Program-made: the position numbers and the translations under genes
Origin: a virus
Taxonomy: Duplodnaviria; Heunggongvirae; Uroviricota; Caudoviricetes
Length of the DNA: 43,871 nucleotides
Strand: one strand, 5' to 3'
IMG/VR virus record: IMGVR_UViG_3300001282_000006
In this document: piece by piece, positions 32,361 to 34,248 of the stretch
Layout: every line of letters begins with the position of its first letter
Numbering within the stretch: position 1 is the stretch's first letter
The notes under the pieces: model-generated
Databases searched by the model: none
What the model was told of the DNA's origin: nothing
The model's input: the letters and a program-made list of their open reading frames with translations, nothing else

Positions 32361-32411
32361 ATGAAAACAACATCACAATACCAACAACAACAAATTAATC
32401 GAACAGATTGA
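32361..32411 (+). CDS. Leader peptide 4, MKTTSQYQQQQINRTD (Gln sensor)
   Basis: Five CAA codons; CAGATTGA (32404-32411) is the exact complement of TCAATCTG in the terminator. Confidence 0.85.
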   Translation: MKTTSQYQQQQINRTD

Positions 32412-32439
32412 TAACGGTATCGTATTGTTAAAACTTTAC

Positions 32440-32474
32440 AAACCCTATTCAATCTGATTGAATAGGGTTTTTTT
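32440..32474 (+). terminator. Intrinsic terminator of attenuator 4
   Basis: aaaccctattcaat-ctg-attgaatagggttt followed by a T run. Confidence 0.9.
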
Positions 32475-32476
32475 AT

Positions 32477-32548
32477 TGCTCCATAGTATATGGGTGATCA
32501 TATCTGTCTTTGAAACAGATGAGCTTGGTTCGAGTCCAAGTGGAGCAA
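32477..32548 (+). tRNA. tRNA-Gln (TTG)
   Basis: tctgt-ctTTGaa-acaga; U1-A72. Confidence 0.9.
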
Positions 32549-32554
32549 CAACAA

Positions 32555-32625
32555 TGTCTCGTAGTGTAACGGCAGCACAGAAGATTTTGACTCTTCTAGT
32601 CTAGGTTCGAATCCTAGCGAGACAA
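32555..32625 (+). tRNA. tRNA-Gln (TTG)
   Basis: gaaga-ttTTGac-tcttc; U1-A72. Confidence 0.93.
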
Positions 32626-32643
32626 CTAAAAAATATAAAAATT

Positions 32644-34248
32644 ATGAATTTCATTGAAGATAAAATATTAGACAAAAATAATCTTGATAAATTAACATTA
32701 AGATTTCCACCAGAACCAAATGGTTACTTACATATTGGTCACGCTAAATCCATTATACTTAATTTTGGATTAGCTGAAAAGTATAATAGACCTTGTAATC
32801 TAAGGTTCGATGATACAAATCCAACTACTGAAGATACTCACTATGTAGAATCAATTGTAAAAGATATAGAATGGCTTGGTTACAAACCAGCTAATATTTT
32901 CTATACATCTGATTATTTTGACTTTCTTTACAATTGTGCGATTACTTTAATTAAAAAAGGCTTAGCTTATGTTGATGATTCAACATCTGAAGAAATTGCT
33001 TTAATGAAAGGAACTCCAACTTCAGTTGGTAAAGACTCACCTTACAAATCTAGATCAGTAGAAGAAAACTTAGACTTATTTAATAGAATGAGATTAGGTG
33101 AATTCACCGAAGGTTCTAAAATCTTGAGAGCTAACATTGATATGACTTCTCCAAATATGATTTTAAGAGATCCAGTTATTTATAGAATAATCTCTAAGTC
33201 ACATCACAGAACTGGTGATACTTGGAAGATTTATCCAATGTATGACTTTGCTCATCCTTTATCTGATTATAAAGAAGGTATCACTGATTCACTTTGTACT
33301 TTAGAATTTGAAGTTCATAGACCTTTATATATGTGGGTATTAGAAAATTGTGATTTAGAAAATTCATTACCAGAAGAAACTGAGTTTGCTCGTTTGAACA
33401 TTGACTATACAGTTATGTCAAAGAGAAAGTTAAAAAGACTTGTAGAAGAATCTTATGTTACAGGATGGGATGATCCAAGAATGCCAACTATATCAGGTTT
33501 AAGAAGAAGAGGTTTTACACCAAATGCTATTAAAGATTTTTGTGATAGAATTTCTGTTACAAGAAAAGAATCAGTTGTTTCTTACTTACTTTTAGAAGAA
33601 TGTTTAAGAACTGATTTGAATGTTGTTGCTAATAGACTAATGGGTGTCATGTATCCGATTAAGTTAGTTATTACTAATTGGGATATGGGAACTGAAATGG
33701 TTGAAGTTGAAAATAATCCTGGTGATGAAAGTGCTGGAGTGAGAATGATTCCTTTTAGTGGTGAATTATTTATTGAGGCGGAAGATTTCAGAGAAGAAGC
33801 CAATAACAAATTCCACAGATTAAAATTAGGCAGTGAAGTAAGATTAAAAGGTGCTTATGTTATTAAGGCTAATGAAGTTATCAAGAATGAATTAGGGGAA
33901 ATTATTGAGATCAGATGTACTTATGATCCTTTAACAAGATCGGGTATGACTTTTGAAAGAAAGATTAAAGGAACTATTCACTGGGTATCTGCTGAACACG
34001 GAGTTAGAATAAATGTAAATGAATATGATAGATTATTTAATGATGAATCACCTGATAAAAATGAAGATGATTTTATCAATTATATCAATCCAGATTCACT
34101 TATTATTAACGACAAGGCAATCCTTGAACCTCACGTTTTAAACGTCAAGGAGCCTGTTCAAATGATGAGAAAAGGGTATTATATTTTAGATACTGACGGT
34201 AAAAGTTTCAATAAAACTGTAAGTTTGAAAGAAGGATGGGTAGGTTAA
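32644..34248 (+). CDS. glnS: Glutamine--tRNA ligase
   Basis: RFPPEPNGYLHIGH, RFDDTNP, YPMYDFAH, CTLEF, MSKRKL, GWDDPRMPTISGLRRRG, KGTIHWVS. Confidence 0.96.
   Translation: MNFIEDKILDKNNLDKLTLRFPPEPNGYLHIGHAKSIILNFGLAEKYNRPCNLRFDDTNPTTEDTHYVESIVKDIEWLGYKPANIFYTSDYFDFLYNCAITLIKKGLAYVDDSTSEEIALMKGTPTSVGKDSPYKSRSVEENLDLFNRMRLGEFTEGSKILRANIDMTSPNMILRDPVIYRIISKSHHRTGDTWKIYPMYDFAHPLSDYKEGITDSLCTLEFEVHRPLYMWVLENCDLENSLPEETEFARLNIDYTVMSKRKLKRLVEESYVTGWDDPRMPTISGLRRRGFTPNAIKDFCDRISVTRKESVVSYLLLEECLRTDLNVVANRLMGVMYPIKLVITNWDMGTEMVEVENNPGDESAGVRMIPFSGELFIEAEDFREEANNKFHRLKLGSEVRLKGAYVIKANEVIKNELGEIIEIRCTYDPLTRSGMTFERKIKGTIHWVSAEHGVRINVNEYDRLFNDESPDKNEDDFINYINPDSLIINDKAILEPHVLNVKEPVQMMRKGYYILDTDGKSFNKTVSLKEGWVG

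Follow-up and report, generated by a model that had tools for sequence, protein, structure and literature searches.

A glutamine-codon leader probably gates tRNA-Gln genes, and here an adjoining glnS, by transcription attenuation in a huge phage

A stretch of 43,871 nucleotides of viral DNA (IMG/VR record IMGVR_UViG_3300001282_000006; the whole stretch is called the window) was analyzed for a unit at positions 32361 to 34248, in which a short glutamine-rich leader open reading frame (ORF) and a terminator precede two tRNA-Gln genes and glnS, the gene for glutaminyl-tRNA synthetase (GlnRS). The window is a fragment of a huge phage. It is AT-rich (30.5% G+C) and contains 32 tRNA genes as identified by ARAGORN, and its nearest database relatives are the uncultured phages LR745206 (634-kb) and LR756502 (642-kb), which are ~76% identical across the region. 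The unit consists of the following features:

32361..32411, + strand: leader ORF of 16 codons, ATG to TGA, with the peptide MKTTSQYQQQQINRTD (ORF list, comparison)
32376..32393, + strand: sensor codons, CAA at codon 6 (32376-32378) and four CAA at codons 8-11 (32382-32393)
32394..32400, + strand: segment 1 (ATTAATC), three codons directly 3' of the CAA run (fold)
32404..32421, + strand: segment 2, CAGATTGA (32404-32411, overlapping the TGA stop) plus GGT downstream (fold, shuffle controls)
32416..32429, + strand: 3' strand of the outer stem, with its partner at 32369-32382 (codons 3-8) (fold)
32440..32474, + strand: intrinsic terminator, with 5' arm (segment 3) 32440-32453, loop 32454-32456, 3' arm (segment 4) 32457-32470 and U-tract to 32474
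32477..32549, + strand: tRNA-Gln(UUG) number 1 (ARAGORN; Rfam 51.9 bits)
32555..32626, + strand: tRNA-Gln(UUG) number 2 (ARAGORN; Rfam 65.4 bits)
32644..34248, + strand: glnS, glutaminyl-tRNA synthetase of 534 aa (TIGR00440, Pfam, E. coli alignment)

The start context of the leader is A-rich and free of a Shine-Dalgarno sequence, and resembles that of glnS. Five of the 15 leader residues are Gln, compared with a background of 2.5% (binomial P = 2.3e-5), and CAA accounts for 5 of the 16 codons; the TAC at codon 7 is part of the outer stem. In the minimum-free-energy fold, segment 1 (32394-32400) pairs with GATTGAT (32406-32412) to form a 1:2 anti-antiterminator hairpin. Alternatively, segment 2 can pair with the terminator 5' arm to form an antiterminator, as CAGATTGA is the exact complement of TCAATCTG (32449-32456) in the 5' arm and loop. 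The terminator has a 14-bp stem and a 7-U tract, the end of which lies 2 nt before the first tRNA-Gln gene. Energies of -10.5, -13.1, and -16.7 kcal/mol were predicted for the anti-antiterminator (1:2 hairpin and outer stem), the antiterminator and the terminator, respectively, and the leader region folds with z = -4.45 compared to shuffles. Segment 1 thus begins where the sensor codons end, segment 2 sits on the stop codon, the terminator is made up of segments 3 and 4, and the predicted 1:2 hairpin and outer stem would complete a trp-like four-segment design. When the leader region was searched with Rfam, only the tRNAs reached the gathering score, and no T-box or other family was assigned even at an E-value up to 1; a match of the terminator to the PyrR site at this setting was rejected as sub-threshold (24.6 versus 54 bits).

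Most of this arrangement had been described in an initial annotation, which placed here a CAA-rich leader with an antiterminator overlapping its stop codon, two tRNA-Gln genes after the terminator and, 18 nt later, glnS with no visible promoter in between. The leader and its complementarity are indeed present, and both tRNA-Gln(UUG) genes were found by two programs. The adjacency of glnS also holds, with a gap of 17 nt and not 18 between the second tRNA-Gln gene and the ATG. No sigma-70-like or TAnnTTTG site could be identified on the + strand of 32474-32644 by motif scans, which would miss an unfamiliar type of phage promoter.

GlnRS synteny and two DNA-pattern scans, run over viral and metagenome contigs (labelled L001 etc.), were used to gather relatives of the unit and yielded 31 distinct versions of the leader and terminator in contigs of huge phages. 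Downstream DNA is available for 30 loci, and in 29 of them one to four tRNA-Gln genes come next (UUG, in some cases CUG), with no tRNA of another kind. In the exception, L079 (oriented 665-740), the leader and terminator precede a truncated tRNA-like remnant and, after it, a protein gene, and this looks like a decayed copy of the unit. The upstream neighbor varies among the relatives and can be a tRNA-Pro gene, as in the window, a protein gene, or the element's own TAnnTTTG box ~35 nt before the ATG. Therefore, the element belongs with the genes downstream and not with those upstream.

All 31 versions have an open frame 0 that extends from the ATG through segment 2, while stops interrupt the other two frames in 31 and 25 of the 31, respectively. 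A 1-nt deletion in L091, L006, and L008 shifts the TGA of GATTGA out of frame, and the ORF then ends 10-22 nt downstream, never upstream. Each leader is 15-23 codons long, of which 5-7 code for Gln in runs of 3-7, and the totals over the 31 versions are 159 CAA and 29 CAG; a by-eye check among the relatives revealed no clear association of leader CAG codons with a downstream tRNA-Gln(CUG) gene. A variable leader codon for Arg, Gln or Pro sits in the loop of the 1:2 hairpin, and a change from Tyr to Phe (TAC to TTC) is accompanied in the outer stem by a change from GGTAT to GGAAT, save in two apparent recombinants. These residues therefore appear to be constrained by the RNA structure and not by the peptide. 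The terminator hairpins are of 19 distinct kinds, all perfectly paired, and stem positions 4-11 show 3-5 pair types each, which suggests that the terminator is kept by compensatory changes, while the spacer from the stop codon to the terminator is not conserved. RNAalifold over the 31 sequences gave the 1:2 hairpin as consensus. The underlying MAFFT alignment misaligned the terminators, so that only this hairpin was recovered, and it was replaced as a structure test by per-sequence analyses.

Two further observations were made on the surroundings of the element in relatives. In L095:2565-3131 (- strand), L077:5255-5497, L085, L101, L099, and L010, the Gln leader is in frame with an upstream ORF with no intervening stop, and ribosomes that finish the upstream gene would in these six relatives run directly into the sensor codons; the upstream ORF in L095 is an HNH endonuclease (PF13391, 24.9 bits). 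At L001:1894-2023, and also in L091, an insert of ~130 nt without a tRNA lies between the first and the second tRNA-Gln gene.

The terminator arm is changed in several relatives, to TTAGTCTG in the L002 group, CCAGTTAATC in L093 and L099, and GTCAATTA in L092. The stop-codon segment still pairs with each of these arms, partly by new pairs such as CTGG with CCAG. Each transcript was also folded up to the terminator loop with the ribosome footprint blocked (masked folds), in which the mRNA was taken as protected to 15 nt past the first base of the P-site codon. With the A site on the last CAA of the window leader, the modelled footprint ends at ~32403, one base short of segment 2, and with the ribosome at the stop codon segment 2 is fully covered. 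When the ribosome was placed on the last Gln codon, 9-15 nt of the terminator 5' arm paired with segment 2 in 31 of 31 versions, and when it was placed at the stop codon, the arm was free in 29 of 31. After dinucleotide shuffling of the intervening sequence, the energy of the antiterminator was matched in 3 of 1000 shuffles for both the window and L092, in none for L002, L093, and L059, and in 16-33 of 1000 for L010, L006, and L008. Paired with 45 unrelated terminator arms, segment 2 of the window gave -5.9 ± 2.6 kcal/mol, and none of these arms reached -13.1. The antiterminator appears, from these comparisons, to be selected and not incidental. A control in which unrelated terminators were paired with the best 22-nt window of their own upstream sequence (mean -9.7 kcal/mol, 20% at or below -13.1) was rejected; it takes the best of ~24 windows from a set that probably includes other attenuators of these phages and is not a clean null, and the shuffles and foreign arms were preferred.

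Four further lineages (L009, L114, L164, and L161) appear to build the same design from different sequences. Among the loci found by glnS synteny, L008 has the leader MTTFTQQYQQQQIDREIDW and L009 the leader MVNITINIQQQQQQQTLNKGSGIALS. In L009, segment 2 (GGGTTCCGG) pairs with a quite different arm (CCTGGAACTT), and a hairpin analogous to 1:2 directly follows the Gln run; a pattern scan for relatives of this leader returned its own contig only. A generic pattern consisting of a CAA run, a T-run and a Gln anticodon loop matched 53 stretches, of which one was a new true case, L114, a 159-kb phage with the leader MKTLTSQQQQLFKPD. L164 and L161 were reached via GlnRS representatives that are ~50-56% identical to the window enzyme. 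Their leaders, MNNINNIQQQQQQLGNDCLVV and MTYFYDIFQQQQQQSERSDRLAVPVRVT, respectively, are each followed by a terminator and then by tRNA-Gln genes upstream of glnS, and in the full fold of L164 the region of the Gln run pairs with downstream sequence. These differently built leaders before tRNA-Gln arrays carry 4-7 consecutive Gln codons. In masked folds, antitermination upon stalling and termination at the stop codon were clear in L009, L114, and L164 and less clear in L161.

The glnS product scored 658.7 bits against TIGR00440 (cut-off 425.8), matched PF00749, PF03950, and PF20974, and aligned to E. coli GlnRS with E = 4.6e-180, including the HIGH and VMSKR motifs. In 15 of the 20 loci that have both, the last tRNA-Gln gene is separated from the glnS ATG by 17-33 A-rich nucleotides with neither a TAnnTTTG box nor a T-run. 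Because such a gap appears to leave no room for a promoter, glnS is likely controlled together with the tRNA-Gln genes, and co-transcription would be the simplest reading.

The amino acid composition of the enzyme is unusual as well. It contains 1 Gln in 534 residues, compared to 13.2 expected from the 29 long ORFs of the window (P = 2.2e-5), and is the second lowest of these 29. Exactly one Gln at the same site is found in 114 of 120 cluster representatives of the phage GlnRS clade (at least 73% identical), and its counterpart in E. coli GlnRS is also a Gln, one of 14 in the 525 aligned residues of that enzyme. For 115 diverse GlnRS representatives the median was 11 Gln (range 1-27), and three very low-Gln enzymes that were looked up are all located in phage-like gene neighborhoods. 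Since a GlnRS that needs almost no Gln-tRNA for its own synthesis is expected of a gene expressed when Gln-tRNA is short, the nearly Gln-free enzyme would fit a gene meant for expression during such a shortage. The Gln codons of the phage ORFs are 229 CAA and 21 CAG, and tRNA-Gln(UUG) is therefore the species in demand. The same purge of the cognate amino acid is found in the phage glutamyl-tRNA synthetase (GluRS; window 24874-26343, + strand; TIGR00464, 378 bits, 490 aa), which has 6 Glu versus 29.6 expected (P = 9e-8) and 3 Gln versus 12.2, while Asp is raised (60 versus 37.5). The ATG of the GluRS gene lies 4 nt after a TAAATTTG box, and because of this short distance its mRNA may be leaderless.

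Combining the sequence elements, their conservation and covariation, a linkage confined to tRNA-Gln and a GlnRS that contains almost no Gln, the element is best read, with a probability of roughly 0.8, as a ribosome-mediated (leader-peptide) transcription attenuator that reports the speed of Gln-codon decoding and gates the phage tRNA-Gln genes and, here, glnS. The phage would then probably make tRNA-Gln and GlnRS only when ribosomes read Gln codons slowly. Transcripts would start near 31756, at a promoter box upstream, pass a further attenuator (attenuator 3) and Asp/Pro tRNAs, and enter the 16-codon leader. When Gln-tRNA(Gln) is plentiful, the ribosome would reach the stop codon and cover segment 2 (32404-32412), upon which the terminator at 32440-32474 could form and transcription would end 2 nt before the first tRNA-Gln gene. 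When Gln-tRNA(Gln) is scarce, the ribosome would stall on the CAA run, and a stall at about codons 9-11 would mask both segment 1 (32394-32400) and the outer stem's 5' strand. This would leave segment 2 free to pair with the terminator 5' arm, the terminator would be blocked, and RNA polymerase would read into the two tRNA-Gln genes and glnS. This reading supposes that the leader is translated, that ribosomes stall on it, that transcription and translation are coupled, and that polymerase reads through into a transcript shared with glnS, in a host that is likely of the Bacteroidota type without Shine-Dalgarno sequences.

Several points weigh against the attenuator reading. Both pattern scans contained segments 1 and 2, so that the invariance of these segments among the matches is no evidence, and only L008, L009, L114, L161, and L164 are free of this bias. 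In 22 of 31 versions, a truncated transcript without a ribosome thermodynamically favors the antiterminator. For termination to be the default, the 1:2 and outer stems, which are made earlier, must therefore be assumed to have a kinetic advantage, and a kinetic trap of this kind would be plausible. A ribosome that stalls as early as codon 6 or 8, the first hungry codons, would not yet mask segment 1 and would not uncover segment 2. L160, whose GlnRS also has 1 Gln, shows neither a tRNA nor a poly-Gln leader in the 2.5 kb upstream. Finally, other genes intervene in 5 of the 20 loci, where glnS is 220-3342 nt away, glnS is apart from the tRNA-Gln array in L008 and L009, and in L011 there is no tRNA within 3 kb of glnS. 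From this synteny, glnS would be a frequent and not an obligatory passenger in the relatives. The order of leader, tRNA-Gln and glnS that the initial annotation proposed to look for in related phages is thus kept in its first part (29/30 loci) and in its second part only where the genes adjoin (15/20). Likewise, of its claim that the leader controls tRNA-Gln and glnS together, the sequence-level predictions for an attenuator and the linkage to tRNA-Gln were borne out, and the control of glnS is argued from the missing room for a promoter.

The irregular position of glnS bears directly on the view that the attenuator governs the tRNA-Gln genes only and that glnS is expressed separately, via a promoter inside the tRNA genes or via mRNA stability after tRNA processing; excision of the tRNAs will also detach the glnS mRNA from the remaining transcript. 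Given the short, box-free gaps in most loci, the lack of a promoter-like site on the + strand of 32474-32644 and a Gln-poor GlnRS that fits expression in Gln-tRNA shortage, this separation is considered unlikely. That the leader might instead be a translation-dependent attenuator without Gln specificity, sensing general ribosome availability or speed, is improbable. In its favor, the outcome of the masked folds depends on the position of the ribosome alone and not on codon identity, and (CAA)n is intrinsically unstructured and a generic spacer, so that the CAA run could serve as an unstructured spacer or loading zone; this property of CAA repeats also counts against the Gln-specific reading. 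The leader is, however, tied to tRNA-Gln in all but one of the loci, leaders with other segment sequences before tRNA-Gln arrays also have 4-7 consecutive Gln codons, and the remaining four leaders in the window have codon runs that differ and fit the tRNA blocks behind them (1 of 120 permutations).

An ordinary terminator of the upstream Asp/Pro tRNA transcript, combined with a chance small ORF and an unrecognized promoter for tRNA-Gln and glnS, would explain why the terminator comes after a tRNA block in the window, and phage-specific promoters would evade motif scans. However, the same leader and terminator precede tRNA-Gln behind a protein gene or a promoter box in relatives, the tRNA begins 2 nt past the U-tract, and conservation extends to the ORF, the Gln run and the complementarity to the arm. 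Moreover, because the spacer between the stop codon and the terminator is not conserved, a promoter in it is unlikely, and this explanation as a whole is given very little credence. Direct, T-box-like sensing of tRNA-Gln, with the CAA codons as specifiers and no need for translation, would have an identical logical target, the status of tRNA-Gln. It is nevertheless the least credible alternative, since neither a T-box nor another Rfam family was found on the leader, the start codon and open frame are conserved with the stop codon always in or after segment 2, and the element of ~110 nt is far below the size of a T-box leader.

The design of the phage element can be compared with several known systems. 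The pheST attenuator of E. coli has the pheM leader peptide. For bacilli, Naville and Gautheret (2010, PMC2965389) predicted a His leader peptide in front of hisS paralogues. As in these two cases, a short ORF rich in cognate codons and a terminator/antiterminator pair precede a synthetase gene and sense the charged cognate tRNA. In contrast to them, where the synthetase is the only target, the targets in the phages are first and universally tRNA genes, with the synthetase being optional; the phage element is also phage-encoded, reads Gln and comes after a second attenuator in series. Attenuation mediated by ribosomes at cognate regulatory codons is classical, and its general mechanism is described in Elf and Ehrenberg (2005, PMC1183508). 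The phage leader shares with trpL, hisL, leuL, pheL, thrL, and ilvL the four-segment design (1:2, 2:3, 3:4), with regulatory codons just 5' of segment 1 and the stop at segment 2, and with leuL, hisL, and pheL a run of identical codons, here 4-7. It differs from these operon leaders in that its output is the decoding machinery and not a biosynthetic enzyme, so that the loop closes on the sensed molecule, and it has no sequence or Rfam relationship to them and probably works in a Bacteroidota-type host without Shine-Dalgarno sequences. Like the T-box riboswitches of Firmicutes, it would let tRNA charging feed back on synthetase expression via the choice between terminator and antiterminator, but T-boxes bind uncharged tRNA directly and independently of translation, and T-box features are absent from the phage leader. 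[quoted passage not shown]

Phage tRNA genes are usually seen as constitutive cargo that suits the codon usage or stands in for host tRNAs that have been degraded. In full-text literature searches, no paper was returned that reports such control by a leader peptide for tRNA genes, for a glnS gene or in phages, and the term 'tRNA gene' is absent from the broad attenuator survey PMC2965389. An attenuator-like leader of the E. coli tRNA-Phe genes pheV/pheU, considered as a possible precedent, was dropped because the sequence did not bear it out; in an O157:H7 genome, a tRNA-Phe gene downstream of yqgA, taken for pheV, has no Phe-rich ORF or terminator in its 170 nt of upstream sequence. The comparisons give good support to a known mechanism, leader-peptide attenuation, in a new form that would gate tRNA genes and be conserved across many huge phages. 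If this holds, the phage gauges for each codon how fast it is decoded and produces tRNA and synthetase when they are needed, as a direct feedback on the translation apparatus. Attenuation would then extend to RNA genes, to Gln, to Shine-Dalgarno-free hosts of probable Bacteroidota type and to viruses, and the element would represent a compact, portable sensor of Gln-tRNA status.

A low bias for the cognate amino acid has been described for amino-acid biosynthetic enzymes (Fasani and Savageau, 2014, PMC4209129). The phage GlnRS with 1 Gln and GluRS with 6 Glu are extreme cases of the same rule that proteins required in a shortage avoid the amino acid in question, although here in synthetases and not in biosynthetic pathways, and no description of this for phage synthetases was found. 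The nearly Gln-free GlnRS would thereby give an independent sign, from sequence only, of the condition in which the module should work. A wider interpretation, which is tentative and held at somewhat less than even odds, is that the unit is a self-contained homeostat of glutamine decoding, possibly a counter-measure to the loss of host tRNA-Gln or of its charging. Its sensor would read its own product, two attenuators would act in series, and the GlnRS, purged of Gln, could still be made without Gln-tRNA. Together with the Glu-purged GluRS, this would suggest a general design rule for translation-rescue genes of phages, in which leader attenuation and cognate-free enzymes co-evolve in several huge-phage lineages.

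Upstream of the Gln unit and elsewhere in the window, the following features were identified:

31756..31763, + strand: Bacteroidota-type -7 promoter box TATATTTG (motif scan for TAnnTTTG then TA)
31811..31967, + strand: attenuator 3, leader MKNLNLNIVNPQPQVVIDQDPDTKGANYVVLS and terminator, with the Gln unit nested behind (ORF, terminator, masked fold)
31982..32331, + strand: tRNA block between the two attenuators, with a tRNA-like element, tRNA-Asp, an Asp-like tRNA (GCA in the anticodon loop) and tRNA-Pro (ARAGORN, Rfam)
8402-8532, 9099-9236, 21913-22086, and 31811-31967: other mini-ORF and terminator units before tRNA blocks, with the peptides YYYEGE; GGGAGA; Met/Asn/Leu/Thr/Val-rich; and PQPQ..DQDPD, respectively

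In motif scans, TAnnTTTG boxes (then TA) occupy intergenic gaps throughout the window. On the + strand, the box at 31756 is the sole one of the Bacteroidota type between 31209 and the start of glnS, with none in 31764-32759, and it is therefore the likely start of the whole unit. The ORF of leader 3 (31811-31909) is rich in Pro, Gln and Asp codons, and in its masked fold a stalled ribosome frees GCTAAC for pairing with the terminator 5' arm, which is the same switch logic. With this single box and a second leader of the same logic, the proposed nesting of the Gln unit downstream of attenuator 3 holds at the level of sequence.

Within the tRNA block, the tRNA-like element at 31982-32058 was not called by ARAGORN and has a weak match to the tmRNA clan (17.7 bits). 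Its anticodon loop, TCTGGAG, is odd in having C at position 33, with positions 34-36 being TGG, and it may be an aberrant tRNA-Pro; the element is conserved in L001 and L002. The tRNA at 32178-32249 has an Asp-like body with GCA (Cys) in the anticodon loop and could not be assigned by ARAGORN; relatives have tRNA-Asp(GTC) at this place.

Altogether, four other units with a promoter box, mini-ORF, terminator and tRNA block are present in the window. When the five leaders were matched with the five tRNA blocks, the true matching ranked 1 of 120 permutations, and the Gln leader was the strongest single case. A conserved motif close to CTTTTTAATATATAC was observed at 8215, 9068, 21895, and 31794, ~30-40 nt 3' of TAnnTTTG boxes save for the copy at 9068, which has no preceding box. 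It sits directly upstream of leader ATGs or of a tRNA, and may mark the 5'-UTR or start region of the leader/tRNA units.

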